Assembly (NCBI GenBank): GCA_041306525.1
Contig: JBFZFE010000063.1
Location: 1-44,450, forward strand
Reading direction: 5' to 3'
Length of the DNA: 44,450 bases
DNA from: Verrucomicrobiota bacterium
GTDB lineage: Bacteria > Verrucomicrobiota > Verrucomicrobiia > Palsa-1439
The notes under the pieces were generated by a model. It was not told where the DNA came from, made no database searches, and worked only from the letters and a program-made list of their open reading frames with translations. A program made the position numbers and the translations under genes. Of the stretch, positions 11,511 through 38,592 are shown piece after piece (position 1 is the first letter of the stretch; the number at the start of each line of letters is the position of its first letter).

Positions 11511-12215
11511 CTATCTGATTTCCGGCCGGCTGACGGCGGGGGTCGAGGCGGTGTAAATGGTTGCCGAGATCCCCTCGCCGGCGGCACCGGCAAGACCAAG
11601 TTGCTGGCCGGGGAACGGAAATGTGGCGTGGAGCAGGAACATTTCCTTCTGGTCGGAGAACTTGAGCAGAGCTTTGCCCGCAAAAGGAGCGCTGCGTTCG
11701 CCGACAAGCACTTTGCCGCGGCAAACCGTGTCCAAGGTGACCAAGTTGCCGGCGATGGACCTGTCGCCCTTGAACTGCGTGAGGCCTTGCAGGGCGACCT
11801 CGCTGAAGGTCTCGAAGATGATGCGAAAATTCAGTGCGGCAAACTTTTGGGCCCAAACGCCACCGGGGATGGTATCGAACATGCCGTATTTCCGTGCCGA
11901 ATTGGTGATTTGGACAGTGAACGCGCCGTTCTGGGTGACGTGGATTTTTTCATCAAGCACGTCGAGTTGCCCCTTGAAACCAACTTTGCCCTCCACATTT
12001 TTGCCGCACCAGAAACTGGGGTGCCGGCTGCCTTGCTGGTCAAGAATCATATACACGATGTACGGACGCGGGTTGCGGCTCATGTCGAACGCGCCACTGA
12101 CGTGTTCCATCATCTTCTCTTGTTCGGTGACCGAGAATGCTTTCTTCTTTTCGGCGGCGGAGACCGAAAATGTGACGAACAGCAACAGCAGGAGCTGAAT
12201 GGGGATTGCTCGCAT
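11511..12215 (-). CDS. Hypothetical secreted protein
   Basis: 234 aa. N-terminal signal peptide MRAIPIQLLLLLFVTFSVSAAE. It lies 3 nt downstream of the preceding ORF. No family recognised. Confidence 0.6.
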   Translation of the reverse strand: MRAIPIQLLLLLFVTFSVSAAEKKKAFSVTEQEKMMEHVSGAFDMSRNPRPYIVYMILDQQGSRHPSFWCGKNVEGKVGFKGQLDVLDEKIHVTQNGAFTVQITNSARKYGMFDTIPGGVWAQKFAALNFRIIFETFSEVALQGLTQFKGDRSIAGNLVTLDTVCRGKVLVGERSAPFAGKALLKFSDQKEMFLLHATFPFPGQQLGLAGAAGEGISATIYTASTPAVSRPEIR

Positions 12216-12218
12216 GGC

Positions 12219-13343
12219 TCAATTCCTTTGCCGCTTGTCGGCCACGCCCGAGGTTTTGTTTGGAATGGCGGGCGGGTTTGGCGTTCCTTGGGTGTCCACC
12301 AACACCACGTAACCGTCCCGACCGCCCCCGTTCTTCGGCTGCACGGCGTGGCGGATGTTGGTCGGGAACCGACGACTCCATTTCTGATCCACCTGACCGG
12401 GGACAAGGTCATGGGCGCCACCATGGCCACGACCCGCAAGGCGCAGCCCGCTGGCGTTTGGCGTCAAGTTGGCGATGCGGACGTTGTTCAGGTCGGGGGT
12501 GAAGATCGTGAAGAACGGTCCGCCCTTGGCCATGGCGAATTCATCCGTACGATGTTCGACGTACCAAGGGGGCACCCAAGCGTCATGGCTTTCGACGAAA
12601 CCGGTCCAGCCGCCGCCGGTAACGGCGACCTCCCCGTTCGGAAGCCGGTACATGTCATAAATGTTGATGAGGGTTGGAATATCGCTGGTGGGCAAATAGC
12701 CGACATAGCGGGTGAAGGACGGGACGTCCATCGTTTCCGAAGTTGAACTGCTGAAACCGCCACACTTGGCCGGCAAGCGCAAGTCGTAGGGCTGCTGGCC
12801 GAGAACAGTGTTGCCGCCATCCGACCAGGCGGTAAGGGTAAGCTTCCCATCCTCACCAATGCGGATACTGGTCACGGGGGAATCTGCCACGAGGCGCAAC
12901 TGGTCGACACCAACAATGGGACCGGTCCACCCGTACGCGGTCCAGACCTGTTTCCCATTGGCGTCCACCTTATAGAGGTAAGGGTTCACATAGGGCTCCA
13001 AACCCGTTGCTGAGCGGTAACTGCCACCGAAGTACATGGCGACGGATTTCGGATCCAACGCCATGTTGGAACCGCTGATTTCCAGCGTCGGGCCGTCGGT
13101 CACGCTGCCGTTGTGGTCAATGTAGAAAAGGTTGTCACCGCGCCGACACAAGACCGAACCGTCGTTGCGCGGGAAAATGTTGGCGGCGCCATGCTTGAAC
13201 CGAACGGCCCAGACAACGCTGCGTTGGTCAGCAGAAATCTTCAGGACAAAGCCATCTGATCCCGCCTCGCGAACGCGCCCCTTCGCATCTGGCTTGAGCG
13301 CTTCCGGGTGGGGAACAAGCGCTGACTTCACGTTCTTGGTCAA
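12219..13343 (-). CDS. Hypothetical protein, beta-rich. Possibly the C-terminal part of a frameshifted larger gene.
   Basis: 374 aa ORF starting at a TTG with no signal peptide. The frame is open upstream to 13388 with no ATG. See the finding on the frame break at 13343-13391. Confidence 0.55.
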   Translation of the reverse strand: MTKNVKSALVPHPEALKPDAKGRVREAGSDGFVLKISADQRSVVWAVRFKHGAANIFPRNDGSVLCRRGDNLFYIDHNGSVTDGPTLEISGSNMALDPKSVAMYFGGSYRSATGLEPYVNPYLYKVDANGKQVWTAYGWTGPIVGVDQLRLVADSPVTSIRIGEDGKLTLTAWSDGGNTVLGQQPYDLRLPAKCGGFSSSTSETMDVPSFTRYVGYLPTSDIPTLINIYDMYRLPNGEVAVTGGGWTGFVESHDAWVPPWYVEHRTDEFAMAKGGPFFTIFTPDLNNVRIANLTPNASGLRLAGRGHGGAHDLVPGQVDQKWSRRFPTNIRHAVQPKNGGGRDGYVVLVDTQGTPNPPAIPNKTSGVADKRQRN

Positions 13344-13347
13344 CGCA

Positions 13348-13914
13348 TCAAAGTGCGGTCCCTTTATCCCCCGAGTTGATCGTCGCGGTCATGGGGGCTG
13401 TCATCATCGGGGCTTCGCCGCTGATTTCATCAATCTCAGGAGTGATGTATTTTGACCCAGCGCCGGTCGAACTGTTCTTCTGCCCCGCCGCGACACTGCT
13501 GACGCTCTGTTCCATCAGCTTGTCGAGCTTCGCGTTAGCTGTGCGGGCAATGCCGATCTCATGGAACGCCAGATGGATGAGCCGTTCGCCGCAGTAGTCG
13601 TGCAGGAGGAATACATTCGAGTCATTTGTTCCCGGAACACGTGACAACCAGATGTCACCGGGGTTCTTCGGGGTGAACCACTTGATTCCTTCATAGTGAC
13701 CGGGACGTCCGAACCCGACGATCTTGCCGCGTTCGTCCTTTACCGGCAGGTTGGCGAACCAGAGCTGCCCCTGCTGGCTGTGTTCCTGGCCGGTGGCAGC
13801 ATCACGCCATGTCACCTCAGCATTGAGATACTTGGGCGGGGTGGTTTCGTAGCCCTGGGCGCCCACAGCAAGCAAACCGGCCAGCAACGCAAGAATGATT
13901 ATCCGGGAACGCAT
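13348..13914 (-). CDS. Hypothetical secreted protein. Possibly the N-terminal part of a frameshifted larger gene.
   Basis: 188 aa. Signal peptide MRSRIIILALLAGLLAVGAQG. It ends 4 nt before the TTG of the next ORF, which is in a different frame. Confidence 0.55.
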   Translation of the reverse strand: MRSRIIILALLAGLLAVGAQGYETTPPKYLNAEVTWRDAATGQEHSQQGQLWFANLPVKDERGKIVGFGRPGHYEGIKWFTPKNPGDIWLSRVPGTNDSNVFLLHDYCGERLIHLAFHEIGIARTANAKLDKLMEQSVSSVAAGQKNSSTGAGSKYITPEIDEISGEAPMMTAPMTATINSGDKGTAL

Positions 13915-14901: not shown

Positions 14902-15798
14902 GTGACAACTCAAGCACAACTCACGCGCTTTTCGCCGGTCAAGGTCAACCTGTACCTGCGCATCGTTGGCAAACGCGTCGATGGGTACCATGAGCTTGAG
15001 ACAGTCATGTTGCCGGTGCAGTTCGGTGACCGGCTGACGTTTGAGCCACACGATGCCGGCATCGTGCTGGCGTGTGATCATCCGTCGCTGCCGACCGACG
15101 ACACCAATCTGGTTCTCAAAGCCGCTAAACTGCTGGCCCAGGAGCATGGCGTCCGCCAAGGCGCGAAGATCACGTTGCAGAAACGTGCGCCACTGGCCGC
15201 CGGTGTGGGCGGCGGCAGCAGCAACGCCGCGACGGCTTTGCGCGGGCTGAATGAACTTTGGAAATTGAATCTGCCGACGTCGGCACTCGGCAAGCTCGCG
15301 GCGCAACTTGGCTCGGACATCAACTTCTTCCTACAGGACGGGGCCGCCGTCTGCCGCGGGCGAGGCGAACAGGTGCAACCGATTCCGTGCAGGCTCTCCG
15401 CGCATGTGCTGTTGGTGACCCCGGGATTCGGCATTTCAACGCCGTGGGCCTACGCGGCATGGGCACAGGCTGCGAGTCGATTGACAGTTGCGCCGCCGGA
15501 CGTTAGTCTGCTGGCGCGTTCGTTGGCCGAGGATGACTTGGCTGGAGTCAGTGCTGCGTTGTTTAACTCCTTGGAAGCGCCGTCGGTTGGGAAATTCCCC
15601 GTTCTGGATTTGCTCAAACGCGCCATGCGCACCAGCGGCGCCACGGGCGCATTGATGAGCGGGAGCGGCGCAACGGTTTTCGGTTTGTTTGCCGAAAAAT
15701 CAGCCGCCGAACGATGCGCGAATCAGATGCGAGAGGATTTTGGACCGAGCCTGTGGACAGAAGTGACCGGCTCGGCAGCAGGTTTGGTTGCCCGGTAG
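14902..15798 (+). CDS. ispE: 4-diphosphocytidyl-2-C-methyl-D-erythritol kinase
   Basis: 298 aa with a GTG start. N-terminal pattern PVKVNLYLRIVGKRVDGYHEL and GHMP kinase motif PLAAGVGGGSSNAA. Confidence 0.92.
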   Translation: MTTQAQLTRFSPVKVNLYLRIVGKRVDGYHELETVMLPVQFGDRLTFEPHDAGIVLACDHPSLPTDDTNLVLKAAKLLAQEHGVRQGAKITLQKRAPLAAGVGGGSSNAATALRGLNELWKLNLPTSALGKLAAQLGSDINFFLQDGAAVCRGRGEQVQPIPCRLSAHVLLVTPGFGISTPWAYAAWAQAASRLTVAPPDVSLLARSLAEDDLAGVSAALFNSLEAPSVGKFPVLDLLKRAMRTSGATGALMSGSGATVFGLFAEKSAAERCANQMREDFGPSLWTEVTGSAAGLVAR

Positions 15799-15863
15799 TG
15801 TAATTGGTAACACAGCGGCCTTTGGAGCCGTATTTCCTGGTTCGAGTCCAGGCCGGGCAGCCA
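15789..15863 (+). tRNA. tRNA-Gln (anticodon TTG)
   Basis: Cloverleaf folded by hand. Acceptor TGCCCGG/CCGGGCA (U1:A72, typical of bacterial tRNA-Gln), D stem GTGT/ACAC, anticodon stem GCGGC/GCCGT. Anticodon loop is CTTTGGA, T arm is CCTGG-TTCGAGT-CCAGG, discriminator is G, and CCA is encoded. Total 75 nt. Confidence 0.9.
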
Positions 15864-15882
15864 GTTTCTTGGGCGTGACTGG

Positions 15883-15898
15883 TGGCATGCCACCTGCT
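15883..15898 (+). promoter_or_regulatory. Candidate sigma-54 (-24/-12) promoter upstream of the MshEN-domain gene and pilB
   Basis: TGGCAT-gccac-CTGCT has GG (15884-15885) and GC (15896-15897) at the canonical 12-nt register of the TGGCAC-N5-TTGCW consensus. It lies 27 nt upstream of ATG 15925, and GGAGG at 15916-15920 falls in the predicted short leader. The same half-sites recur at 18603-18618. Confidence 0.5.
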
Positions 15899-15924
15899 AT
15901 CTTTGCCCTCGGCTTGGAGGCCAA

Positions 15925-16830
15925 ATGAGTCAGACGGCAGGAAACATCTCAGAAGAGGAATTCCAGCAACTGCTGCGCACGGTGGAAATGTTCGAGGCCA
16001 TCACCGAGGCGCAACCGGACGATTACCAGTCCTTGGAAATCCTGAAAGAGGCTTACACCAAGCTGGGGCGCAAACCAGACCGGCTTCGTGCCTCCCGGAT
16101 GCTGGCCAGCGCCTATCAGACAATGGGCCATGTATCCCTGGCCATTCTTGAATGCGAAGCCATCCTCCAGGAAACCCCTGCTGATGCGGCCATCAAGGAA
16201 CTGCTTGCCGGCCTGAACAGTTCCACAACAATGGCCGCTACCGCCACTCCTGCGGCGCCCTCGTTGGAAAAGGACTCCAAGCCAACACCACCTGCTGGTG
16301 AACCAGCGGGGGCGCCCAGTATCGCGGTCCTGCGTCAGCACGCCGAGGAGGGTGACCGGCTGCTGGCAAATCTGCTGGTTGCCGAAAAGCTGGCAACGCA
16401 ACAGGCAATCGAACCCTTGCTGCAGAAGTTGCACGCGATGCGCGCTGAAGCCGGGGGACGGACCCAGCCCTTTTCACTGCTCCAGCTCATTGCCAACGAG
16501 CAGTACGCCAAGCTCGACGATTTGCTCACGGTCGTGCTGGACAAGTCCAACCTGCCGTACGTGCCGTTGTCTGTGTATGACGTTGATCGGGACAACGCGA
16601 GCCTGTTGCCGCTGGATTTTTGCTGGCAACACTGCCTGATTCCCTTCGATGTGATCAGCCGTTCCGTTCTGATCACGACCGCCAATCCCTTTGACATGCC
16701 ATCGCGTCTGCAGGTCGAACAGATGCTGAACCGAAATGTCTTCTGGTACGTCAGTCACCCCCAGGAAATCATCACCGCCCTGCGGCGCGTGCACGGGTTG
16801 GACACCAGCAAGACACCACAGGCTGCTTGA
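15925..16830 (+). CDS. Stand-alone GspE_N/MshEN-domain protein with an N-terminal TPR-like helical region (no ATPase domain)
   Basis: 301 aa. The C-terminal ~140 aa follow the T2SSE N-terminal domain pattern (LLANLLVAEKLATQQAIEPLL..., LPYVPLSVYDVDRDNASLLPLDFCWQHCLIPFDVISRSVLITTANPFD, VFWYVSHPQEIITALRRVHG). The N-terminal ~95 aa are helical and TPR-like, joined by a Pro/Ala linker. The TGA shares its last base with the pilB ATG. Confidence 0.75.
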   Translation: MSQTAGNISEEEFQQLLRTVEMFEAITEAQPDDYQSLEILKEAYTKLGRKPDRLRASRMLASAYQTMGHVSLAILECEAILQETPADAAIKELLAGLNSSTTMAATATPAAPSLEKDSKPTPPAGEPAGAPSIAVLRQHAEEGDRLLANLLVAEKLATQQAIEPLLQKLHAMRAEAGGRTQPFSLLQLIANEQYAKLDDLLTVVLDKSNLPYVPLSVYDVDRDNASLLPLDFCWQHCLIPFDVISRSVLITTANPFDMPSRLQVEQMLNRNVFWYVSHPQEIITALRRVHGLDTSKTPQAA

Positions 16831-18539
16831 TGAAGTCTTTCGGAGAACGCATCGCCGACACCTTGATTGCTGATGGGGTCCTCACCCAGAAGCAGCTGAC
16901 CGAAGTTCTGGAACTCCAGAAAAAGCAGGGCGGCCAATTATTGAAGCTCCTGCTGGAGCGTCGCTTTGTGACTGACCAGGACATGATGGTCAGCATGGGC
17001 CGTTGCTTGGGGACTCCCCCGGTATCGCTCGCCAAGATGCGTGTGCCAGCCGAGGTCGTGGAACTGATCCCCAAGGACATGGCACAGAACTACAAAATGG
17101 TGCCAGTCGCCCGCTTCGGCAAGAAACTGTTCGTCGCGATGGCCGATCCGTTGAACGTGATCGCACTGGATGATGTGCGCCGCGTCCGCCCGAACATGCA
17201 GATCGTGCCGTTGATCACCACCGAAAAGGCAATTGGCGATTTCCTGAACAACGCCAACGCGCAAATGGGCGGCGGCATCGATGAAATCCTCAAGGATGTG
17301 GATGTCTCGGATGTCGAGCTGGCCAAGGACAAGCAGGAAGAGATCAACCTCGATCAGCTCATCGAAAGCAGCGAGGAAGGCCCCGTCATCAAGCTGGTCA
17401 ACCTGATTCTGGTGCAGGCGATCAAGGACCGGGCCAGTGACATCCACATGGAGTCATTTGAGAAGCAGTTGCGGCTCCGCTATCGCATTGACGGTGTTCT
17501 GTACGATTCCACCGCCCCGCCCAAGTCTTTGCAGTCGGCCATCACCTCCCGCATCAAGATCATGGCCAACCTTGATATCGCGGAGCGGCGCCTCCCGCAG
17601 GACGGTCGTTTCCGCATCAAACTGGCGGGTCGCGATGTGGACTTGCGCGTCTCACTGCTGCCAACAGTGCACGGCGAAAAAATCGTCATGCGCGTGCTCG
17701 ACAAGGGCACCCTGAATCCCAATCTCGAAGCACTCGGTCTTGACCCGGATGACCTCAACAAGTTCCGGCAGGCCATCGACGCGCCCCACGGGATGATGCT
17801 GATGACCGGGCCAACCGGCTCCGGCAAAACATCCACCTTGTACGCAGTCCTCACGCAGTTGAACCAGCCCGACGTCAATATCATCACCGTCGAAGACCCC
17901 GTCGAGTACCAGATGATGGGAGTGAACCAAGTCCAAGTGAAGCCAGAAATCGGGCTGACCTTCGCCAGCGGACTGCGCTCCATTCTCCGTCAGGATCCCG
18001 ACATCGTCATGGTTGGCGAAATTCGCGATTCTGAGACTGCTGATATCGGGGTGAAAGCCGCCCTGACGGGGCACTTGGTCCTTTCCACGCTCCACACCAA
18101 TGATGCCCCCGGCGCCATTGCACGTCTGGTGGACATGGGAATCGAGCCGTTTCTGGTCAGTTCCTCAGTACTGATGATTTGCGCCCAGCGTTTGCTCCGC
18201 AAAGTCTGCCCTCACTGCAAAGAAGTGGAACAAGTTCCGACCGACCTGCTCCGTCGTTTGGGAGTGACCCCAAAAGAAGCTTCCGAATCCACTTTCTACC
18301 ATGGTCGCGGTTGTTCCCGGTGCAAGGAAACCGGGTTTATGGGACGCATGGCAATTCTGGAGGTATTGCTTATCAGCGATGCGATGCGCGAGCTCATTCT
18401 CAGCAATACCAGCGCCAAAGTACTTCGCGAACTGGCCTTGAAAGAAGGCATGAAGACGCTTAGCATGGCGGGCATCGCCAAGGCCAAGGCTGGCTTGACT
18501 GCGTTGGAAGAAGTGCTCCGAGTTACCGGTAATGCGTGA
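16830..18539 (+). CDS. pilB: Type IV pilus assembly (extension) ATPase, PilB/GspE family
   Basis: An N-terminal GspE_N domain is followed by Walker A GPTGSGKTSTLY, Walker B/Asp box ILRQDPDIVMVGEIRD and His box LTGHLVLSTLHTNDA. A tetracysteine motif is present (CPHCKE...CSRCKETGFMGR). I prefer ATG 16830; the track start 16827 is a TTG. Confidence 0.9.
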   Translation: MKSFGERIADTLIADGVLTQKQLTEVLELQKKQGGQLLKLLLERRFVTDQDMMVSMGRCLGTPPVSLAKMRVPAEVVELIPKDMAQNYKMVPVARFGKKLFVAMADPLNVIALDDVRRVRPNMQIVPLITTEKAIGDFLNNANAQMGGGIDEILKDVDVSDVELAKDKQEEINLDQLIESSEEGPVIKLVNLILVQAIKDRASDIHMESFEKQLRLRYRIDGVLYDSTAPPKSLQSAITSRIKIMANLDIAERRLPQDGRFRIKLAGRDVDLRVSLLPTVHGEKIVMRVLDKGTLNPNLEALGLDPDDLNKFRQAIDAPHGMMLMTGPTGSGKTSTLYAVLTQLNQPDVNIITVEDPVEYQMMGVNQVQVKPEIGLTFASGLRSILRQDPDIVMVGEIRDSETADIGVKAALTGHLVLSTLHTNDAPGAIARLVDMGIEPFLVSSSVLMICAQRLLRKVCPHCKEVEQVPTDLLRRLGVTPKEASESTFYHGRGCSRCKETGFMGRMAILEVLLISDAMRELILSNTSAKVLRELALKEGMKTLSMAGIAKAKAGLTALEEVLRVTGNA

Positions 18540-18602
18540 TCGAATATGCAAAATTGAGAGTTTTGGCTCGCAGCGGAGCACATTAATGCCTAAACAGACG
18601 GT

Positions 18603-18618
18603 TGGCATAGGTACTGCT
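18603..18618 (+). promoter_or_regulatory. Candidate sigma-54 (-24/-12) promoter upstream of the 738-aa gene, mglA and mglB
   Basis: TGGCAT-aggta-CTGCT has GG (18604-18605) and GC (18616-18617) in the canonical register. It sits in a lower-GC 114-nt intergenic region, 36 nt upstream of ATG 18654, with GGAGAG at 18646-18651. The half-sites are identical to the element at 15883-15898. Confidence 0.5.
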
Positions 18619-18653
18619 AATAAACCGAACCGTAGTTCAAGAGACGGAGAGAA

Positions 18654-20870
18654 ATGAAATTTCCTTTCTTCAAAGGGCAGAAGCCAGAGCAAAAGCCGAC
18701 GACAACTGTGTTCGTGCCACCCCGAGCCGTCACGAACAAACCAACGCCCCCCGCCCCCGTCGTCCCGCTCCCCCCCATGCCGGTGGGCGGTGGTGATTCT
18801 GTCCCGCTGCGACTCAGCTCGATTTTGTCGCAACTTCCCCGCGATTTGTTTCAAAACGAGCATCGCGCACAACTCGCCAACTTGACCCTTTCTGTTCCCT
18901 CCCGACTGGTGCTCCCCCAGCTTTCGTCCGGCAAGGTTTCCATCGCCCTGGCCGATCTGGCGCCTGCGTTTCCCGCCAATGTGTTGAACCGCTCCGTTCT
19001 CGCCACCGCAGGGCAACACCCTGTTCTGTTGCCATTGCAGGAGATGATCGCCTCCCTGCCTCCCGAAGCATTCAAGGTCAAACACGAGGCGGAGATTTCG
19101 ATGGACGAACCTGAGCTGGCGACATTGCCGGCTTTGTTTGATGAGGAAGCCACTCGCCGAGCAGAAGCCGTTGCCCGCAAGGCGGTCGCAATACCAACCC
19201 CCATCGAGGAGCCCGCTGCCATCCGTGCTGCGGCTGCCCCCCCCTCACCGGCGGCACCGGCGCGGGCAATGACAGCACCGGCGCCCGTCCGTACCCCGGA
19301 GCCAGTTACGGCGGCAACTCCAGCAGTGGAAGCACAGAAGATCAACATCCCAAGTGGTATTGAGATCCCCACGACAGTCCAAGTCTCGTTGCGCAGTTTG
19401 GTCAACAACATGCCTGAGAAGCTGTTTGTCTGTCCGAAGGCAGACCTCTGGCAGCAGACCGACTTGGATGTAACCGTGCCGTTGCCTCTGGAGCCGATTC
19501 TGTCTCAGATCCAGAGCGCCCGCGTTACCGTGCCAATCAAGAACATTCTCCCCCTCATCCCCGCTGCCATCCTGGTGCAACCGACACCCTTGCTGGACAC
19601 AGAAGTGATGGTGGTGCCGCTCTACGAAGTAATCCCGCAATTGCCTCCTGAGCTGTTCACCGCCCAACTGAGCGCGACGCGTCCGCAGGATCAACAAGCG
19701 ATTGATGCGGACAGTCCCGCGCCGTTCCAGGAGCGCGCCAAACCTGCCCCGCTGCCGGCCAAGCCGGTCGAACCCGAAAAGCCGGCTGTGGTGTCCGAAG
19801 TAACGGAGAAGCAACTGGAAGAGGAAATGCCAATCTTCTCTGAAAAACACCCTTCCCGGCTGCTTTCAGAGACGACACGCATCCAATTGCCCGCAGACTT
19901 GGCAGCCCGCGCCAAGGCGGCCTCTCCGTCCCCGGTCGCTCCGGCCCCTGGCATGGCAGCAGTTCCCGTGGCGCCCCCCGAACGCTTGATGCCTCCCGCC
20001 CCGGTGGAACCACCAAAGCCGGTCGAACCTGTCGCCCCCGTCGCGCCCGTCGTCGCCGAGCCAATCAAACCGGTCGAACCGCCAGCGCCGGCAGTCGAGT
20101 TGCCGGCAGCACCAGTCCCGACTGCAGTCCCGGAGCCGATCAGGCCAGTCGCCCAAGAACCCGAAACCCAGCCCCTGACAGAGGCACCGGCGATCGAAGA
20201 GGACGAGGCTGTTTCCGCCGAGATCGCCGAGGAGGAGGCCCTCGCCGCGGGCGCAGGTTCGCTCGACGAGCGCAAGTTCCTCATCAACATCAATCGCTGT
20301 ACCGTCGAAGACCTGCTGCGCATCGAGGGAGTTGGCCGCAAGCTGGCGCAACGCATCATCGAGTTCCGCACCAATCACGGGCACATCTCGTCGATTGAGG
20401 AATTGCGTCTGGTGCCCGGTGTCGGACGCAAGACTTACCGGGCGTTGGCGGGAGTGGAATCACGTTCGCTGAACCGATTGCTTGGTGTTCCCGACGATCG
20501 CGAACTGACATTGCAGGAAGTGATCAAGCTGACCGGTTCATTGAAGGGCATTGAAGGTTGCATGTTGGCGATGTCCGACGGCCTGTTCCTGACCGGCCAA
20601 CTGCCGGCCGGGTTTGACCAGGAAGCCATCAGCGTGTTTGCGCCCCAGTTGTTCAAGAAGATGGGCCGTTACGTCAAGGAATTGGGCGTCGGTCAGGTGC
20701 GCCGCTTCACGTTGTTCACGGATGAACGTCCCATCAGTATTTTCCGCGCGGCCGACGTTTATCTGATCATCATCCACGATACGCGTCACTTCAGCAAACG
20801 CCTGCTCCGCCAGTGCGAGCGGATCAGCCAGGAAATCGCGCGGCTCTGCCGTCAACGCACCGTTGTGTAA
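18654..20870 (+). CDS. Multidomain cytoplasmic protein: duplicated unknown module, Pro-rich linker, ComEA-like helix-hairpin-helix, C-terminal Roadblock/LC7 (MglB-like) domain
   Basis: 738 aa, no TM segment or signal peptide. Residues 541-600 (FLININRCTVEDLLRIEGVGRKLAQRIIEFRTNHGHISSIEELRLVPGVGRKTYRAL) match the ComEA-type double HhH pattern. Residues ~618-733 (IKLTGSLKGIEGCMLAMSDGLFLTGQLPAGFDQEAISVFAPQL...RRFTLFTDERPISIFRAADVYLIIIHD) fit the Roadblock/LC7 pattern. The stop lies 11 nt before mglA. Confidence 0.8.
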   Translation: MKFPFFKGQKPEQKPTTTVFVPPRAVTNKPTPPAPVVPLPPMPVGGGDSVPLRLSSILSQLPRDLFQNEHRAQLANLTLSVPSRLVLPQLSSGKVSIALADLAPAFPANVLNRSVLATAGQHPVLLPLQEMIASLPPEAFKVKHEAEISMDEPELATLPALFDEEATRRAEAVARKAVAIPTPIEEPAAIRAAAAPPSPAAPARAMTAPAPVRTPEPVTAATPAVEAQKINIPSGIEIPTTVQVSLRSLVNNMPEKLFVCPKADLWQQTDLDVTVPLPLEPILSQIQSARVTVPIKNILPLIPAAILVQPTPLLDTEVMVVPLYEVIPQLPPELFTAQLSATRPQDQQAIDADSPAPFQERAKPAPLPAKPVEPEKPAVVSEVTEKQLEEEMPIFSEKHPSRLLSETTRIQLPADLAARAKAASPSPVAPAPGMAAVPVAPPERLMPPAPVEPPKPVEPVAPVAPVVAEPIKPVEPPAPAVELPAAPVPTAVPEPIRPVAQEPETQPLTEAPAIEEDEAVSAEIAEEEALAAGAGSLDERKFLININRCTVEDLLRIEGVGRKLAQRIIEFRTNHGHISSIEELRLVPGVGRKTYRALAGVESRSLNRLLGVPDDRELTLQEVIKLTGSLKGIEGCMLAMSDGLFLTGQLPAGFDQEAISVFAPQLFKKMGRYVKELGVGQVRRFTLFTDERPISIFRAADVYLIIIHDTRHFSKRLLRQCERISQEIARLCRQRTVV
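18801..19658 (+). repeat. Internal duplication of a ~90-aa protein module within the 738-aa gene (copy 1 at 18801-19073, copy 2 at 19377-19658)
   Basis: Aligned by eye. LRLSSILSQLPRDLF pairs with VSLRSLVNNMPEKLF. LSVPSRLVLPQLSSGKVSIALADLAPAFPANVL pairs with VTVPLPLEPILSQIQSARVTVPIKNILPLIPAAIL. VLLPLQEMIASLPPEAF pairs with VVVPLYEVIPQLPPELF. The copies are divergent at nucleotide level. Confidence 0.7.
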
Positions 20871-20881
20871 GGAGTTGGACC

Positions 20882-21595
20882 ATGTCGATCATCAATTACG
20901 CGAACAAAGAAGTGCAGTTCAAAATCGTCTATTACGGTCCCGCCCTTTGCGGCAAGACGACCAATCTGGCCTACATTCACAGCCAAGTTGACGACACCAA
21001 CAAAGGTGAACTCGTCTCCCTGGCAACGGCCGCGGATCGCACGCTGTTTTTCGATTTCCTGCCGTTGAACGCGGTGGTCATCAAGGGATTCAAGACCAAG
21101 TTCCAGCTTTACACAGTCCCCGGACAGGTCATCTACAACGCCACTCGCCAACTCGTTTTGCGCAGCGTTGATGGCGTCGTGTTTGTCGCCGATTCGCAAT
21201 GGGACAAAATGGAGGAAAACGTCGAGAGCTTCAAAAACCTGCAGGAAAACCTTTCCCGCCAAGGGGCGACTCTCGACAACATCCCGTACATCATTCAGTA
21301 CAACAAACGGGACATGCCGAATCCCGCGCCCATCCATTACATGGAGTTTCTGCTCAACAATCGCAAGACGCGCGTCCCGAGTTTCCAAGCGGTTGCCACC
21401 AGCGGCGAAGGCGTGTTCGGCACGCTCAACGCCATCTCACGTCTGCTGCTGCAGAAATTCGCCCGCGAAATGGAAGCTGCCGCCAATCGGCAAAAGATGG
21501 GGCCTTCCCCCGCCTCCTCATCTTTCTCGGGCATCGCCTCTGGCGTGGGGCGAACTCCACCGGCAGGCCAACCCCCGACCCGCCCACGCTTTTAA
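20882..21595 (+). CDS. mglA: Ras-like small GTPase MglA (mutual gliding-motility protein A family)
   Basis: Starting at ATG 20882, with AAGGAG 8 nt upstream, gives MSIINYANKEVQFKIVYYGPALCGKTTNL. Also present are ADRTLFFDFLP, LYTVPGQV, FVADSQ and QYNKRD. This is near-collinear with Myxococcus MglA as I recall it. The 5' extension of the track ORF (20813) overlaps the upstream gene and was rejected. Confidence 0.93.
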   Translation: MSIINYANKEVQFKIVYYGPALCGKTTNLAYIHSQVDDTNKGELVSLATAADRTLFFDFLPLNAVVIKGFKTKFQLYTVPGQVIYNATRQLVLRSVDGVVFVADSQWDKMEENVESFKNLQENLSRQGATLDNIPYIIQYNKRDMPNPAPIHYMEFLLNNRKTRVPSFQAVATSGEGVFGTLNAISRLLLQKFAREMEAAANRQKMGPSPASSSFSGIASGVGRTPPAGQPPTRPRF

Positions 21596-21613
21596 TCTCA
21601 GATCGAAAGCGCC

Positions 21614-22090
21614 ATGAACGCGACACCAATTGTCACCATCGAAGCGGCCGAACGGTTGCTTAACACGCTGGAAACATTCCTTGATGAGTCGGAAGCCAAC
21701 TTCAGCATCGTGATTGACCGGGGCGGCTCCGTGCTCAGCCAAGCAGGACGGGTCCCCGACACGATCGACCCCACCATTGTGGGCGCCCTCGCGGCGGGCA
21801 GTTTCGCCGCCACCAAGGAACTGGCCACCCGCGTTGGCGAGGAGGAATTCACCGCCTTGCACCAGCAAGGGCAACGCGCTCAAATCCTGATGTCAGCCGT
21901 GGACAGCGATGTTGTTCTCGTCACCGTGTTTGATGAACACACGACGCTTGGCCTGGTCAAATTCTACTCCACCCGCACGGTCAAACGCCTTGCCACGGTT
22001 CTCTCTGATCTGCGGGGCGAACAGGCACCGACCGAACCCGTCTTCACCATGGCGGATGTGGACAATGCCTCGAACATGTTCGGGAAATAA
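21614..22090 (+). CDS. mglB: Roadblock/LC7-domain GTPase-activating protein MglB
   Basis: 158 aa, the canonical MglB size, 18 nt downstream of mglA. Roadblock pattern (FSIVIDRGGSVLSQAGRVPDTIDPTIVGALAAGSFAATKELA...AQILMSAVDSDVVLVTVFDEHTTLGLV). Confidence 0.85.
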   Translation: MNATPIVTIEAAERLLNTLETFLDESEANFSIVIDRGGSVLSQAGRVPDTIDPTIVGALAAGSFAATKELATRVGEEEFTALHQQGQRAQILMSAVDSDVVLVTVFDEHTTLGLVKFYSTRTVKRLATVLSDLRGEQAPTEPVFTMADVDNASNMFGK

Positions 22091-22693
22091 CTAGCTGGCC
22101 TTCACCCATCTGCCGCGGAACACCGTTTTCCCCGCCGCCAAGAACTCCCGCTCGAAATCGGTCTGCGCTTCGACTGGCAGGCTGATCGGTGCTTCACGGC
22201 GAAACTCGCCAATACCAGCCAGGACACGTTCCATTTGTCGGAAATAATCTTCGTGGTCGGTTGCCGTATTCAGGCAACCACCGGCCACAAGTGTTCTCAA
22301 CAACTCGCTGGCAAACGCGGGATTCAGCAAACGCTTCTGAAAATGCCGGCGCTTGGGCCATGGATCCGGAAAATAAAGGTGGTACACCGAGATCGAACAC
22401 GACGGGACCAGCCGGCTGACCAAATAGCTCGCCTCCAGACGGATGAACCTGACGTTCCGCAAACCGCGGCGCTGTGCTTTGCGGTCGACTTTGCGCAAAC
22501 GGAGCAGCAATCGCTCGACCCCGAGGAAGTTGTGGTCGGGTCGGGATTGGGCCGCCCACAGCAGGAACGCGCCCTTCCCACAACCGATGTCCACTTCGAT
22601 GGGCTGCTGGGATGCAAAAACAGTGGACCAGTCGATTGGATCGAGCCAACTCGGGGGCGTATGAATGTTGCTCGTGCTGGCAATCGTTCTCAT
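22091..22693 (-). CDS. trmB: tRNA (guanine-N7)-methyltransferase
   Basis: 200 aa. SAM motif VDIGCGKGAFL and the TrmB signature YHLYFPDPWPKRRHFKRL-like sequence (FPDPWPKRRHFQKRLL). Confidence 0.9.
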   Translation of the reverse strand: MRTIASTSNIHTPPSWLDPIDWSTVFASQQPIEVDIGCGKGAFLLWAAQSRPDHNFLGVERLLLRLRKVDRKAQRRGLRNVRFIRLEASYLVSRLVPSCSISVYHLYFPDPWPKRRHFQKRLLNPAFASELLRTLVAGGCLNTATDHEDYFRQMERVLAGIGEFRREAPISLPVEAQTDFEREFLAAGKTVFRGRWVKAS

Positions 22694-22705
22694 GAAAAAA
22701 AGAGA

Positions 22706-22781
22706 TGGTGGCTAGGGTCAGAATCGAACTGACGACACCGGCATTTTCAGTGCCGTGCTCTACCAACTGAGCTACCTAGCC
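22706..22781 (-). tRNA. tRNA-Phe (anticodon GAA)
   Basis: The reverse complement folds as acceptor GGCTAGG/CCTAGCC and D arm GCTC-AGTTGGTA-GAGC. Anticodon arm is CGGCA-CTGAAAA-TGCCG, variable loop GTGTC, T arm GTCAG-TTCGATT-CTGAC, discriminator A, CCA encoded. Total 76 nt. Its 3' end is 12 nt upstream of the trmB ATG. Confidence 0.92.
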
Positions 22782-22855
22782 ACCGTTTGTGAAACGCGCG
22801 CGACTGTATCTTGCTCGCCGGACTCTGTCAAGAATCGCGCCTGTGAAACGGGGAA

Positions 22856-23356
22856 TTACTTGCTCGGAACTGCCCCGAGAAGACCTGCGACCTGCTGCTG
22901 AACATCTTGGAGTTGATCCAGTCGCAACTGAGGATCGGGAACGGTGATCGTCTCACCGGTCTGGGCATGTTCGTAGACCAGCAGCTCCCTGTCATCGTCG
23001 CCTTTCAAGGTGTCGCGATGACGCAGAACCTTCTTGCGCTCAAGCATGACAGCCAAAATGTAGCGGGAGGCACCTTGCGACGGATCATTCGACTCACAGA
23101 GCTTTCGCAACAACGATTCCGCGGTGTCTTTTTGGATCGCCTCCACTGGCGGTGGCGGCGGCGCCTTGTACTCCCCCTGCCAATAGGAGGCGATGCCGTC
23201 GCGCGAGATGACTGCAAAGCAATTCGGGCAGAGATCGCGCCGATGATAACCATCAGCATTGAAACTGAGCAGCGTATGATAGGACTGCTTGTCCACAAAA
23301 GCCTGCTGGCATTGGGTGCAGGCTTGCGAGCGAGTTTGGATGTCCCATTCAGTCAT
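22856..23356 (-). CDS. Hypothetical zinc-ribbon protein
   Basis: 166 aa. A CxxC...CxxC arrangement (CTQCQQ ... CPNCF) in the N-terminal 50 aa, then a PPPPP linker and a conserved-looking C-terminal domain. No family name recognised. Confidence 0.6.
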   Translation of the reverse strand: MTEWDIQTRSQACTQCQQAFVDKQSYHTLLSFNADGYHRRDLCPNCFAVISRDGIASYWQGEYKAPPPPPVEAIQKDTAESLLRKLCESNDPSQGASRYILAVMLERKKVLRHRDTLKGDDDRELLVYEHAQTGETITVPDPQLRLDQLQDVQQQVAGLLGAVPSK

Positions 23357-27867: not shown

Positions 27868-28608
27868 ATGAGACGAGCCGTATTCAAAGGCCTGTTGCTG
27901 GCAACCATTCTCATGCTCGGGCTTGCCTCAGACAGGAGATCGCATCCCGCCGCCTTGGAAAGCGAGCGGCAGCATGATGAGCGCATGTGGGCGATGATGC
28001 GGCAAATGCTGGCTGATTTCGGGCGGAGCAACCAAGTTGCGGCGCTGGATGATGCCTGGAAGAAAACCAAGACACCACAGCAATGGGTCTTGTTCGGCTG
28101 GGACCAAGCCCACGAAATTCCGTTCACGCCGACCGAGACGGTTCAGCAGATTGCGCGTGCTTGCCGTGATGCCAAGACACTCAACGAGGCTCTCCAACTC
28201 GCCTGCGCTCACCCAGCGGACACCGCCGACATCATTCTCGGTCTGCTGACTTGGACCAGCAATGGTGGCGCGCCATCACTGCAAGGGCGCGCGGACTTGG
28301 CATTGCACTTCATCCATGCCGCAGCCTACGAGTGCTTGTTCGGAATGGGGCGAGCCGTTTCCGTGGCCAAAGAATACCTGGACCAATCACAGGGCAAGCC
28401 GTTCGACCTCGACGACCTGGCAGCGGGATTTGCCGGGGCCGAGTGGGTGAAGCAAGCTCAGCGACATCTGCGCTGGCGAAATGCCTGGGCCACAGGCGAG
28501 AAGAACTTGGACAGAAACCTGCCGGCATTCAAATACGGGACCGGACTGCCATCGGCGGAGCAATTGGTGAAGATTCAGGAGGAGATTGCCGCGCAAATGG
28601 TGCGTTGA
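27868..28608 (+). CDS. Hypothetical secreted protein
   Basis: 246 aa. Signal peptide MRRAVFKGLLLATILMLGLAS. Mostly helical composition. No family recognised. Confidence 0.55.
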   Translation: MRRAVFKGLLLATILMLGLASDRRSHPAALESERQHDERMWAMMRQMLADFGRSNQVAALDDAWKKTKTPQQWVLFGWDQAHEIPFTPTETVQQIARACRDAKTLNEALQLACAHPADTADIILGLLTWTSNGGAPSLQGRADLALHFIHAAAYECLFGMGRAVSVAKEYLDQSQGKPFDLDDLAAGFAGAEWVKQAQRHLRWRNAWATGEKNLDRNLPAFKYGTGLPSAEQLVKIQEEIAAQMVR

Positions 28609-31198: not shown

Positions 31199-31260
31199 GG
31201 GCGCGAAGATACAGGAAACAAACCGGCTCGCAACAGGCAAAATTATCGCACTTGCACAGT

Positions 31261-32241
31261 CTAGCCTTCAACGTCGCCGACAATCTCCTCGACGATGTCC
31301 TCGATGGTGACGATGCCGATGTGTCGGTTCGCCGGCGTCACGACGACACTGATGGGGTTGCGGTTGCTGCGCAGGATGGGCAGCACGCGGTTGATGCGGT
31401 CCGTGGCGAGCAGGAACTGCGGCGGCTGCATCACATCCGCCACCGACTTCCCGATGAGTTCTTCACCAGCAAACAGGAGCTCATACACGTTCAGGACCCC
31501 GATGATCTTGTCACCCTCCCGGACCGGCATGCGCGCGTAGCCGCTCTGCCGCGAGATATCGAGCGCTTGCACCACCGGCGTCTGCGGTGTGAGTGTCAGG
31601 ATCCGGCCCATGGGGAGCATGACTTCCTGGATGGTTTTGTAGGGGAAATCAAAGACCCCATGGATCATCTGGCGTTCATCAGCGCTGAGGGCCCCGCCGT
31701 CTTCACCTTCCTTGGCCAGATGCTTGAGTTCCTCACGGGTGACAAAGAACGGTCGTTGTTGGTCAGCGCCGCCGCTGAAGCGGAGGATGAGGCGCATGAG
31801 CAGGCGAAACAGCCCGACGAATGGCGCGAGCACCCATGCCACCGCGTTGAGCAGATCGGCCAGGCTCATGCAGAGCCGGTAGCTGTATTTGCGGAAGAGG
31901 GTCTTCGGGACAATTTCGCCCAACACCACCAGCGCCAAGGACGAGACAAAGGTGGCGATGAAGCCCGTCCAGTAGTGCTCACCAAACCATCGGGCGGTCA
32001 ACGCCGAGATGCAGACGGCCACGAGTGTGTTGACCAGATTGTTGCCGACCAACGTGGTTCCCAAGAGACGCTCGGAGTTCTCCACGAAGGAGCTGAGGAT
32101 GGCGGCGCGGCGGTTCTTGTGTTCCACCTCGTGGCGCAGACGAATCCGATTCAGCGAAATCAAGCCGGTCTCGATTCCCGAAAAGAAGGCGGAAGCGGGC
32201 AGCCCGACGACAATCCACAGCAGATACCAGAACTCCGTCAT
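31261..32241 (-). CDS. CNNM/DUF21-CBS family membrane protein lacking the CorC_HlyC C-terminal domain
   Basis: ATG 32241 overlaps the stop of the upstream paralog as ATGA. The DUF21 region shows [15 protein letters not shown] and [16 protein letters not shown] pair follows, and the protein ends right after [13 protein letters not shown]. Confidence 0.82.
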
Positions 32242-33500
32242 TTGGACGCTGCCTCCACCCAGAGCAGGACTTCCCGAACGCGATTCTTGGCAACTTTGCG
32301 GGCGACAACACGGACGTTGTCCGCCCGAACGCTGTCGCCATCTTTCGGCAATGTCCCGAGTTGCGAGATGAGCCAACCGGCAATGGTGTCAACGTCCTCA
32401 GCTTGGAGATAGATGCCGCACTGTTCGTTGACTTCCTCCAAGCGCGCTTTGCCATTGATCAGGAAATGCCCGGCCGCCAGCTTCTGGACCAGGATCTCGC
32501 TGGTGTCGAACTCGTCGGTAATCTCCCCGACAATCTCTTCAAGGATGTCCTCCAAGGTCACCATTCCCTGGGTCCCGCCATGCTCGTCGACAACGATGGC
32601 GATGGGGTGTTCCTGCTTGCGAAAACTTTTGAACAGCCGGCTGACGCTCATCGTCTCGGGCACGAAGTTTGGCAACGCCACCACGTCGTCAAGATCGCAG
32701 TCGGGGTTGATCAGGAATTCTTTGACATTGAGCAACCCCTCCACCGTGTCGGGCGTGTCGTGAATGATCGGCACGCGGCGATGCTTGTACCGGCGAAGCT
32801 CTTTCACCATCTGTTCCCGGCTCCAGGAATCATCGACGCACTGCATATCGACGCGCGGCGTCATGATCTCCTTCACCTGCGTGTCTTCAAGGGCAAGGAT
32901 CTTGTTGACCATCGTCCTTTCTTCACGACGCAGCACGCCCGTATGCTCCCCCAAGCGCAGCAATGTCCGGTATTCCTCTTCCGTCGGCGTATGCGACCGC
33001 ACACGGCGGTCGGCGAAATAGGAAATCTGTTCAACGCGCTTCACAATCCACCCCGCCAGCTGGTCAGCTGAGCGGCGGGCAGGCGACATGGCACGGATGA
33101 TCCAGCGGATGACGACAGCCACTCGCAACGCATAGAACTCGGCATTACGAATCACCAGCGTCTTGGGGGTGACCTCGCCGACCAACAGCACCAGAACCGT
33201 GACAACTGGCACCGCCCACTGTTCCGCATGGGACTGGAGGAGAATGCCCAGAATATGATACCCAAGAACCGCAATGCCCACATTCACCACAGTGTTTCCC
33301 AGCAGAATCGTGGAAAGCAGAACCTGTGGCTGCTCCAGCAATTCGTTGACCACCTGGCCACGCCGTGGATCCTCCTGTCGCAAACGACGGAGCTGCAGCT
33401 TGCTCAGCGAGAAGAGCGCTATCTCTGTACCCGAGAAAAACGCCGAGCAACCGAGCAACCCCACGAGCAACAAACACTCCATTACCAAAGTCGCGAGCAT
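32238..33500 (-). CDS. CNNM/CorC-HlyC family transporter (DUF21, CBS pair and CorC_HlyC domain)
   Basis: 420 aa. The DUF21 region shows SAFFSGTEIALFSLS and TILLGNTVVNV, followed by a CBS pair and LEDILEEIVGEI. A C-terminal transporter-associated domain is present. Confidence 0.88.
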   Translation of the reverse strand: MLATLVMECLLLVGLLGCSAFFSGTEIALFSLSKLQLRRLRQEDPRRGQVVNELLEQPQVLLSTILLGNTVVNVGIAVLGYHILGILLQSHAEQWAVPVVTVLVLLVGEVTPKTLVIRNAEFYALRVAVVIRWIIRAMSPARRSADQLAGWIVKRVEQISYFADRRVRSHTPTEEEYRTLLRLGEHTGVLRREERTMVNKILALEDTQVKEIMTPRVDMQCVDDSWSREQMVKELRRYKHRRVPIIHDTPDTVEGLLNVKEFLINPDCDLDDVVALPNFVPETMSVSRLFKSFRKQEHPIAIVVDEHGGTQGMVTLEDILEEIVGEITDEFDTSEILVQKLAAGHFLINGKARLEEVNEQCGIYLQAEDVDTIAGWLISQLGTLPKDGDSVRADNVRVVARKVAKNRVREVLLWVEAASK

Positions 33501-37073: not shown

Positions 37074-38108
37074 TCAGGATTTCGGTTTGTCCTCACCGGC
37101 GATGCTGCCGCGCATCTTGGTGTCGGCTTGGACATTCTGCATCTTGAAATAATCCATCACGCCGAGATTGCCGCTGCGGAACGCCTCGGCCATCGCCAAG
37201 GGGACCTGCGCTTCGGCTTCAACCACCTTCGCGCGCATTTCTTCGACGCGGGCCTTCATTTCCTGCTCCTGGGCCACCGCCATGGCGCGCCGCGTTTCGG
37301 CGGCGGCTTGGGCGATCTGCTTGTTGGCCTCGGCTTGTTCAGCCTGCAAGCGGGCACCGATGTTGTCGCCAACATCCACGTCGGCGATGTCAATCGAGAG
37401 AATCTCAAATGCGGTACCGGCATCGAGCCCGCGGTCCAACACGCGTTTGGAGATACTGTCGGGGTTCTCCAAAACCGCCTTGTAAGTTTCCGAGGAGCCA
37501 ATCGTCGTGACAATGCCTTCGCCCACACGTGCAATAATGGTTTCCTCCGTGGCGCCACCAACGAAACGGTCAAGATTGGTGCGGACGGTGACCCGTGCCT
37601 TCGCTTTCACCTGAATGCCGTCCTTGGCCACGGCATCGATGCTCTGTTTGCCGCTGGAGCCAGCCGGACAATCAATCACCTTCGGGTTGACCGATGTCAT
37701 CACTGCTTCAAACACGCTCTTGCCGGACTGGTGGGTCGCGAGATCAATGGCCGCGGCACGGTTGAAATCGAGATTCAAACTCGCTTTGTCAGCGGCGATC
37801 AGGGCACGTACGACCTGGTTGACGTCACCGCCGGCCAGGTAATGGGTCTCGAGCATGTCGGTCGTCAAGGGCAACCCCGCCTTGACCGCGGTGATGCGAC
37901 TTTGGACGATCAGACCGACCGGCACACGCCGCAACTTCATGCTCAACAGATTCAGAAACGTCACCGGCGCGCCCGACGTGCGGGCCTGAATCCAGATGTT
38001 GATAAACGAAATGATGATGCCGCCGACGACCAACCCGATGATCGCCAAGACGACGGCCACGGCCATACCGATGAACGACATTGTGTCTGCTGCTCCAAGA
38101 ATAATCAT
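37074..38108 (-). CDS. floA: Flotillin-like protein FloA (SPFH domain, UPF0365/YqfA family)
   Basis: 344 aa. An N-terminal TM hairpin is followed by [47 protein letters not shown] and AIDLA. An Ala/Glu-rich coiled C-terminus follows, as in Bacillus FloA as I recall it. Confidence 0.88.
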
Positions 38109-38121
38109 GGTTCTCCTTTGG

Positions 38122-38592
38122 TTATACCTTACGCACGATGATGTTGTTGTCCTGCACGCTTACGACTTGAATGGCACTGCCGGCGGGAATCATGCCCGAC
38201 TCCGCCTGAACATCAAGCCGTTTCCCCGCCACGACGGCAACTCCCGCGGGGCGCAACACGGTGCGCGCCACCCCGGACTGCCCGATCAGGTCCGCCCCCC
38301 GCTGGGTCTGGGCGCGCACCCCAGCCTGCGTCTCGGCCAGAATCAGTTTCTTGCCGGCACGCGTTTGCGGGAAATATTTGATGGCGAAGATGCCCGCCAG
38401 AATGCCGAGCAGCAATTCCAACGGCGCCAGCAACATGACCGCGCCCCAGCCGTACGCCACTTGCGCAACAACCAGCGCGGCCAGCATCAAGACCGTGCCG
38501 ATGCTCGCCAGCACAAAGCCGGGAATGTAAAAATCCACCGCGATCAGGCCCAAGCCAATCACGATCAACAACACAATGGTTTCCCAACTCAC
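38122..38592 (-). CDS. NfeD-family membrane protein (short form with a C-terminal OB-fold)
   Basis: 156 aa. Three or four TM helices are followed by a soluble beta domain ([40 protein letters not shown]). It overlaps the upstream nfeD gene by 4 nt. Confidence 0.82.

Follow-up and report, generated by a model that had tools for sequence, protein, structure and literature searches.

MglA and MglB form the best-studied small-GTPase polarity system of bacteria, and nearly all of what is known about its mechanism comes from Myxococcus. Here, we analyze a gene adjoining mglA in a Verrucomicrobiota bacterium, located at 18654–20870 (+ strand) of contig JBFZFE010000063.1 (assembly GCA_041306525.1). 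Positions 1 to 44,450 of the forward strand of this contig, 44,450 nucleotides (nt) in all, constitute the stretch of DNA analyzed and are referred to below as the window. The gene is a single open reading frame (ORF), from ATG to stop, that encodes a protein of 738 amino acids (aa) comprising, in this order, a short N-terminal motif, two copies of a domain that we denote the N-module, a Pro-rich linker, a double helix-hairpin-helix (HhH) unit and a Roadblock/LC7 domain.

Several systems with related components have been described. One is MglC of Myxococcus, a Roadblock protein that connects RomR with MglB in the RomR/MglC/MglB complex; an adaptor of this type binds MglB and the polar landmark RomR but has no GTPase-activating protein (GAP) activity (PMC10329633). 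In M. xanthus, MglA-GTP acts on polar PilB via SgmX, a protein with tetratricopeptide repeats (TPR) (PMC7519303). A survey of prokaryotic small GTPases reported systems with a 1:2 MglA:MglB composition and PATAN neighbors, but neither the architecture described here nor the linkage to pilB (PMC4316618).

The 738-aa protein is similar to MglC in being a Roadblock member of an MglA/MglB module that is probably not a GAP itself, a likeness that lies in domain type and operon context. However, MglC is a stand-alone Roadblock protein of ~120 aa, and RomR has a receiver domain, whereas in the present case a single 738-aa chain, encoded inside a pilB-mglAB operon, contains an undescribed domain in two copies, a linker, the HhH unit and the Roadblock domain. 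Both RomR and the 738-aa protein join a folded N-terminal part to a long linker rich in Pro. The role that we propose below for the 738-aa protein is that of SgmX, which links the MglA switch with the extension ATPase PilB (PMC7519303). Unlike SgmX, the 738-aa protein contains no TPR (no TPR or Response_reg match at E <= 0.1 in the Pfam search), and the TPR-like element of the operon is a separate 301-aa TPR/MshEN protein, which could be the SgmX-like element. SgmX is not known to have a Roadblock or an HhH domain. With MglB, the 738-aa protein shares the Roadblock/LC7 fold (Foldseek E ~2e-6) and a gene adjacent to mglA, but it differs by its large N-terminal extensions and by the presence of a separate, true MglB encoded after mglA.

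Full-text literature searches yielded no paper joining Roadblock, helix-hairpin-helix and MglA, and nothing relevant on Roadblock and ComEA or on MglB and the nucleoid. As far as the searched literature shows, the Roadblock-HhH fusion has not been described. Rather than a categorically new system, the locus appears to represent an MglA/MglB module whose adaptor has not been described and which includes a new domain family.

Conserved gene order and family

The gene for the 738-aa protein occupies the middle position in a conserved order of five genes, encoding a TPR/MshEN protein, PilB, the 738-aa-type protein, MglA and MglB. Loci of the HhH-bearing subfamily were collected by scanning species-representative genomes (n = 33), and their neighbors were identified by tblastn with the window proteins. 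MglA is encoded directly downstream in all 33 loci and MglB in 32, the exception being a contig end. PilB is encoded directly upstream in each of the 29 loci with sufficient room, with 76–82% identity to the window PilB in 28 of these and 62% in the remaining one (L012). The TPR/MshEN gene precedes pilB in 27 of the 33 loci and is missing only where the contig ends. The preliminary description of this DNA, made from the sequence alone, had noted that mglA lies directly downstream, and this holds for the window: the mglA ORF starts at 20882, 11 nt after the stop codon of the 738-aa gene, and its product, a close homologue of M. xanthus MglA, matches the latter (6h17) with 245 bits (E 8e-72).

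The 33 loci come from metagenome-assembled genomes of uncultured Verrucomicrobiota from peat, bog and soil, except for a single 3-kb contig binned as an acidobacterium. This contig (L011, JADGNO010000065.1, 3,061 bp) carries a PilB-X-MglA segment and was assigned to Terracidiphilus (Acidobacteriota); the assignment probably reflects a binning error rather than gene transfer.

The preliminary description had also suggested looking for the N-terminal repeat in other genomes. A search with the N-module profile against representatives of 50% identity clusters revealed a large family, with 1,753 representatives at E <= 1e-3 and 1,116 at E <= 1e-10; in a single member, the module profile matches as many as 8 stretches. 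The taxonomy of the wider family rests on NCBI names, and the members that have an organism name all belong to Verrucomicrobiota, including Chthoniobacterales. Among 183 sampled family proteins, two N-modules are present in 138, and a Roadblock domain is detectable in 144, at no more than 11 residues from the C-terminus. The HhH unit is present in only 47 and, in the members inspected, directly precedes the Roadblock domain. The larger family lacks the HhH unit and consists of proteins with N-modules, a linker and a C-terminal Roadblock domain; the 738-aa protein conforms to this architecture, with two modules, a low-complexity linker and Roadblock at the extreme C-terminus. Judging from these sequences, the HhH unit is an insertion in one subfamily of the larger, HhH-less family and, therefore, DNA contact cannot be the core function of the family. 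One distant metagenomic representative, P0057 (2,283 aa), carries a response-regulator receiver domain at its N-terminus, after which come several N-modules (seven stretches matched), and links the module to two-component signaling, as in RomR and FrzS.

The HhH-less relatives, which show ~25–30% identity to the 738-aa protein in the shared parts, occupy the same genomic neighborhood. In the nine such loci that were checked, the family gene lies beside pilB and/or mglA-mglB. The full order of five genes is retained in six of them (L003, L039, L042, L043, L044 and L045). In L040, pilB and the family gene are found without mglAB; conversely, in L041 and L004, the family gene accompanies mglAB without pilB, and the L004 neighbor is a PATAN-receiver regulator. 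Because either partner may be missing beside it, the family gene is the constant link between pilB and mglAB. Two further features of these loci were noted. Pilin-like genes (N_methyl and GspH matches) lie divergently upstream of the cluster in L039 (879–1775), L043 (2479–3120) and L044 (1848–3196). In L042 (4113–7638), the family gene is represented by two adjoining ORFs (509 aa and 545 aa), which reflects a genuine split or else a frameshift of the assembly.

Domain organization of the 738-aa protein

The preliminary description had read the ORF as a fusion of four parts and had allowed for the possibility that reading-frame errors had joined several genes. Sixteen full-length homologues are colinear with the 738-aa protein over all its parts, and a conserved N-terminal MxxPFFK motif fixes the start of the ORF; hence, this is one gene rather than a frame error, and the fusion is genuine. 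An artefact of frame or gene fusion is ruled out by this colinearity in the 16 full-length homologues and in the 33 loci. All four parts of the earlier domain reading proved correct by Pfam, self-alignment, AlphaFold2 (AF2) and Foldseek, with the refinements given below.

The N-terminal hydrophobic-basic motif, MKFPFFKGQK (18654–18683, +), is conserved, with counterparts such as MxIPFLDLFKK, MFGAISKLFRK and MGLFDHLFK in relatives; by eye, a motif of this kind opens most of the Met-starting sequences among 172 family proteins. It may be a membrane-targeting helix or a docking peptide. As had been noticed initially, there is no signal peptide or transmembrane segment: the hydropathy profile of the N-terminus, MKFPFFKGQKPEQKPTT, shows no hydrophobic core of the signal-peptide kind, and no 19-residue window of the protein reaches the hydropathy of a membrane helix, the Kyte-Doolittle maximum being 1.54, inside the second N-module. 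Given the absence of such segments and the cytoplasmic partners, the 738-aa protein is predicted to be cytoplasmic.

The N-modules span aa 46–150 (18789–19103, +) and aa 239–345 (19368–19688, +), as delineated with a local hidden Markov model (HMM) and by self-alignment, so that the limits proposed initially for the duplicated module (~90 aa; aa 50–140 and 242–335) are refined to ~105 aa. The duplication itself is clear-cut. A BLASTP comparison of aa 1–200 with aa 201–420 shows 27% identity over 186 aa (E 3e-13), and the Smith-Waterman score between the two modules is 102, compared with 31.5 +/- 5.6 and a maximum of 58 for 2,000 shuffles (z = 12.6). The module in turn is internally duplicated: the first and second halves match each other with an hhalign probability of 96% (E 3e-9). 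Each copy is followed by conserved short motifs: after the first comes an acidic-hydrophobic motif, DEPELATLPALFDEE (19104–19148, +; consensus DTPEFxxLPxLFDD in the conserved alignment columns), and after the second, IPxPFxEK and IFAEK in the alignment of the 16 homologues. Related (E/D)TPF motifs follow the modules of distant relatives.

The N-module had initially been left without a family assignment, and the searches bear this out. There is no Pfam match, and the module profile yields 0 matches at E <= 10 against PDB sequences. The AF2 model of the module, obtained from a 41-sequence alignment, has four beta-strand/helix units and moderate confidence (predicted local distance difference test, pLDDT, 78.6; predicted template modeling score, pTM, 0.62), and its comparison with solved and predicted folds gave nothing significant (best E 7.6 in PDB and 1.8 in BFVD). 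A word-indexed protein search with the module profile was not informative, yielding just 8 short fragments. Divergence of the module from an MshEN, TPR, Roadblock or MglB domain was also considered, but is ruled out by hhalign probabilities of <= 0.2%. The N-module thus constitutes a sizeable new domain family, with its 1,753 representatives and no relative among Pfam domains, PDB sequences or folds.

The linker (aa 346–540; 19689–20273, +) is acidic and rich in Pro, Ala and Glu (21%, 19% and 14%, respectively; net charge -19), with Pro reaching 33% at aa 440–515. Its length and sequence vary, and it is unalignable among homologues. The Pro-rich character noted initially is confirmed, but the repeated KPVEP units do not form a repeat array: there are only three exact copies (aa 370, 455 and 472), plus APVEP and APVAP, in what is best regarded as a low-complexity linker. 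With no tandem repeat detectable at the DNA level and no alignability among homologues, a tandem-repeat array is ruled out.

The double HhH unit (aa 541–603; 20274–20462, +; net charge +4) is clearly of the HHH_3 type, like the (HhH)2 domains of ComEA, EEPD1, Tex and KIF22. Pfam HHH_3 matches aa 544–600 with E 2.1e-16, and the best solved relatives in the PDB sequence search are EEPD1 (8e-12) and ComEA (8dfk; 6.7e-8). In the AF2 model, the unit is helical, with pLDDT above 90. In the 16-homologue alignment, the glycines G559, G561 and G589 of the hairpins show little or no variation; the GxG of hairpin 1 and the RK following hairpin 2 are conserved among homologues, and the second glycine of hairpin 2 varies. 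The label "ComEA-type", which the preliminary description had attached to aa 541–600, thus holds at the domain level but not at the family level: both NCBIfam ComEA models score below their cut-offs (TIGR01259, 48.4 bits versus 152.35; TIGR00426, the HhH region, 45.5 versus 53.1), and, unlike ComEA, the 738-aa protein has no secretion signal or membrane anchor, is cytoplasmic by context and is fused to a Roadblock domain. By these sequence criteria, it is not a ComEA orthologue.

The Roadblock/LC7 domain (aa 617–738; 20502–20870, +), recognized from the outset, ends in a long helix. Pfam Robl_LC7 (PF03259) matches aa 621–707 with 28 bits, exceeding the gathering score (23). The AF2 model of the C-terminal 209 residues (pLDDT 92.3, pTM 0.72) consists of the helical (HhH)2 unit and a Roadblock sandwich, in which a helix, two strands, a long helix, three strands and a C-terminal helix follow each other in the order of the superfamily fold. 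The preliminary description had recommended structure searches domain by domain; with Foldseek, the C-terminus retrieved Roadblock structures (E 1.5e-7 and above, TMt 0.7–0.85). The best match is the Asgard Roadblock3 (9jue; E 1.5e-7, TMt 0.84), and the others include p14/LAMTOR2 (1veu; TMt 0.75), M. xanthus MglB (6hjm; E 1.7e-6, TMt 0.72) and Thermus MglB (1j3w). A family profile of this domain likewise matches Asgard Roadblock chains 7yh1, 7f8f and 7f8m (2.6e-7 to 1.4e-6).

The distance from the motif at the start of the HhH unit to the C-terminus is exactly 197 aa, without indels, in all 16 homologues in which the motif was found. This fixed spacing argues for a single rigid HhH-Roadblock unit. 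The extreme C-terminus, CRQR(A/T)VV (20847–20870, +), is nearly invariant in the HhH subfamily, with R735 and V738 invariant, and also terminates the proteins of a second HhH-bearing group with 3–4 modules; possibly, it serves as a tag for docking or degradation.

Proposed function and alternative explanations

Because genes of the 738-aa type always lie between pilB and mglA-mglB, the 738-aa protein is probably an adaptor between the pilus motor and the polarity switch. More specifically, the analogy with MglC and RomR points to a cytoplasmic adaptor or scaffold that couples the MglA/MglB switch to PilB, a reading to which we give about an even chance. In the mechanism that we infer, the C-terminal Roadblock domain would dimerize and dock onto MglB via Roadblock-Roadblock pairing, as in Myxococcus MglC, or onto MglA. 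The N-modules, the short motifs trailing them and the N-terminal motif would bind PilB, the TPR/MshEN protein or the membrane or pole, and the acidic Pro-rich linker would act as a flexible spacer. In the HhH-bearing subfamily, the rigid (HhH)2 unit beside the Roadblock domain would add a sequence-independent contact with double-stranded DNA that positions or restrains the complex relative to the nucleoid. As a result, the site of PilB-driven pilus assembly would be spatially controlled. Whether the HhH unit binds DNA appears evenly poised from its sequence; the positive charge of the unit (+4) beside the strongly negative linker (-19), the conserved glycines and the RK pair count in favor. 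The preliminary description had proposed that the protein ties MglA/MglB to DNA or to the pilus. The context, with pilB upstream and mglAB downstream in each related locus of sufficient length, is consistent with such a tie and strengthens it, but DNA contact does not belong to the core function of the family.

Should the coupling operate as proposed, a phylum-level lineage would have hard-wired mglA-mglB to pilB through one large, unstudied scaffold gene, in a compact five-gene module in which the link from GTPase to motor could be dissected. The Roadblock-HhH fusion additionally raises the possibility that polarity control receives input from contact with DNA. In the most far-reaching version, the HhH-Roadblock unit would make the chromosome a spatial reference for the polarity switch, and the N-module, possibly a new protein fold judging from its model, would be a dedicated PilB or pole adaptor across Verrucomicrobiota. 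With the MglB-associated scaffold, and perhaps PilB, tethered to the nucleoid, MglA-GTP and pilus assembly would then be confined or excluded with respect to the nucleoid-free poles. We consider this version unlikely.

Several observations weigh against the adaptor reading or parts of it. The match of the Roadblock domain to an alignment of MglB sequences from 38 loci is weak (hhalign E 9e-4, probability 23%), and the domain could act on something other than MglA/MglB. The PilB and GspE models score nearly equally on the ATPase, which could serve a pilus for motility, a different type IV filament or a type II secretion system (T2SS), and a Pfam scan of 35 ORFs of the window detected no further pilus genes, including pilin-like genes. 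The partner of the N-module is a guess, the module having no known relative; moreover, since members without an adjacent PilB (L041 and L004) carry N-modules, the modules do not appear to be exclusively PilB-binding. Because most of the family (136 of the 183 sampled members) lacks the HhH unit, DNA contact is dispensable for the core function. Within the HhH unit, the basic pair after hairpin 1 (RK in the 738-aa protein) is replaced by PA, PV or PS in many homologues. Furthermore, (HhH)2 units can also serve protein-protein contacts.

This last property underlies the alternative closest to the proposed one, in which the scaffold is as described above but the HhH unit is a protein-protein or dimerization module that steadies the Roadblock dimer or recruits a partner. 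It is well established that (HhH)2 units dimerize proteins in some repair factors, such as ERCC1-XPF, and the invariant HhH-Roadblock spacing, the joint model (pTM 0.72) and the variability of the second glycine of hairpin 2 and of the basic pair after hairpin 1 are all compatible with such a role. The strong HHH_3 match, the closest solved relatives being DNA binders, the conserved hairpin-1 GxG and RK after hairpin 2 and the positive net charge speak for DNA instead, and we regard the protein-contact explanation as a possibility worth keeping in mind, although a somewhat doubtful one. A quite different explanation places the HhH unit at the center: the 738-aa protein would be a ComEA-like competence protein, with PilB driving a DNA-uptake pilus, HhH taking or handing over transforming DNA, and MglA/MglB in a regulatory role. 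The matches to ComEA (8dfk and the 45.5 bits for the HhH region), the ability of PilB-type ATPases to power competence pili and source annotations of relatives as "competence ComEA-like" would fit. However, both ComEA models remain below cut-off; ComEA acts on double-stranded DNA outside the cytoplasm, whereas the 738-aa protein has no signal peptide or anchor and is fused to a Roadblock domain that, like MglA, is cytoplasmic; most of the family lacks HhH, yet is encoded in the same operon; and the Pfam scan of 35 window ORFs detected no comEC, dprA or other competence genes. We consider a competence function highly improbable, and database labels such as "competence ComEA-like protein" are misleading for the N-module/Roadblock family.

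Finally, the 738-aa protein could be a second, domain-extended MglB, its Roadblock domain acting on MglA as a catalytic GAP or as a platform for a co-GAP or guanine nucleotide exchange factor (GEF), in a 1:2 MglA:MglB system. The preliminary description had considered a GAP/GEF platform, an idea that amounts to an analogy because the Roadblock domain is only remotely related to that of MglB. The position of the gene directly beside mglA and the superposition of the domain on MglB of M. xanthus and T. thermophilus (E ~2e-6 to 1e-5, TMt 0.7–0.76) are in line with this explanation. On the other hand, the operon already encodes a bona fide MglB, and the NCBIfam MglB model NF052242 recognizes that neighbor but does not match the 738-aa protein at E <= 0.1. 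Conversely, a family HMM of the Roadblock domain of the 738-aa protein does not recover the window MglB at E < 0.01, and the profile-profile probability with MglB is just the 23% given above. Where M. xanthus MglB has A64 and G68, the 738-aa protein has Lys and Arg in this weak alignment, the numbering having been transferred via the PDB alignment. A64 and G68 are small residues of helix 2 at the MglA interface, and bulky substitutions there are reported to abolish GAP function. A GAP role therefore seems quite unlikely to us: judging from sequence, the 738-aa protein is no orthologue of MglB and is unlikely to be a second GAP, and we retain the adaptor between PilB and the MglA/MglB switch as the preferred reading.

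Other genes of the cluster and the window

The first gene of the cluster (15925–16830, +) encodes the 301-aa protein with a TPR-like N-terminus and a C-terminal MshEN domain of the T2SSE N-terminal type. In the Pfam search, MshEN matches aa 209–293 with E 2.8e-13, and the TPR matches are weak. The stop codon of this gene overlaps the start of pilB (16827–18539, +), which encodes an assembly ATPase of the PilB/GspE type, for a type IV pilus or T2SS, with an N-terminal MshEN domain. The ATPase matches Pfam T2SSE with E 1.9e-140, and its scores are 672 bits with the NCBIfam PilB model TIGR02538 (cut-off 675.65) and 639 bits with the GspE model TIGR02533 (cut-off 630). At aa 8–53, it contains an MshEN-type cyclic-di-GMP-binding motif, RIADTLIADGVLTQKQLTEVLELQ, that scores 30.8 bits with NF053729, below the cut-off of 38; by this motif, the pilus motor of the operon may be regulated by cyclic-di-GMP.

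Downstream of the 738-aa gene, mglA (20882–21595, +), identified by its PDB sequence match, encodes a small GTPase of 237 aa with a C-terminal tail of ~40 aa rich in Pro and Ser. This tail (21466–21595, +; aa ~195–237), which also contains much Ala, is not present in the solved MglA structures of M. xanthus and T. thermophilus, the alignment stopping at aa 193; in related loci, the MglA matches have lengths similar to that of the window MglA. After 18 nt follows mglB (21614–22090, +), encoding a Roadblock-domain protein of 158 aa that matches Pfam Robl_LC7 (E 8.4e-9), NF052242 (69.6 bits, below the cut-off of 200) and, among PDB sequences, M. xanthus MglB (1.8e-15). In helix 2 of this MglB, Glu occupies the position of M. 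xanthus G68 in the PDB alignment (GALAAGSFAATKEL versus SLTAGNVAAMGGL).

Counts of promoter and terminator motifs in 15500–22900 are at the level of shuffled sequences and say nothing for or against internal promoters. Outside the cluster, those neighbors that match Pfam are of housekeeping and regulatory types. Downstream of the cluster and immediately past trmB, a 166-aa ORF (22856–23356, - strand) without a Pfam match contains two CxxC pairs (CTQCQ ... CPNCF). Several sizeable ORFs without a Pfam match at E <= 1e-5 lie at 11511–13914 (-), 27868–28608 (+) and 31252–32412 (+). At 37074–39992 (-), a gene for a flotillin-like FloA protein adjoins one for an NfeD membrane protease-like protein, an ordinary, known pairing.

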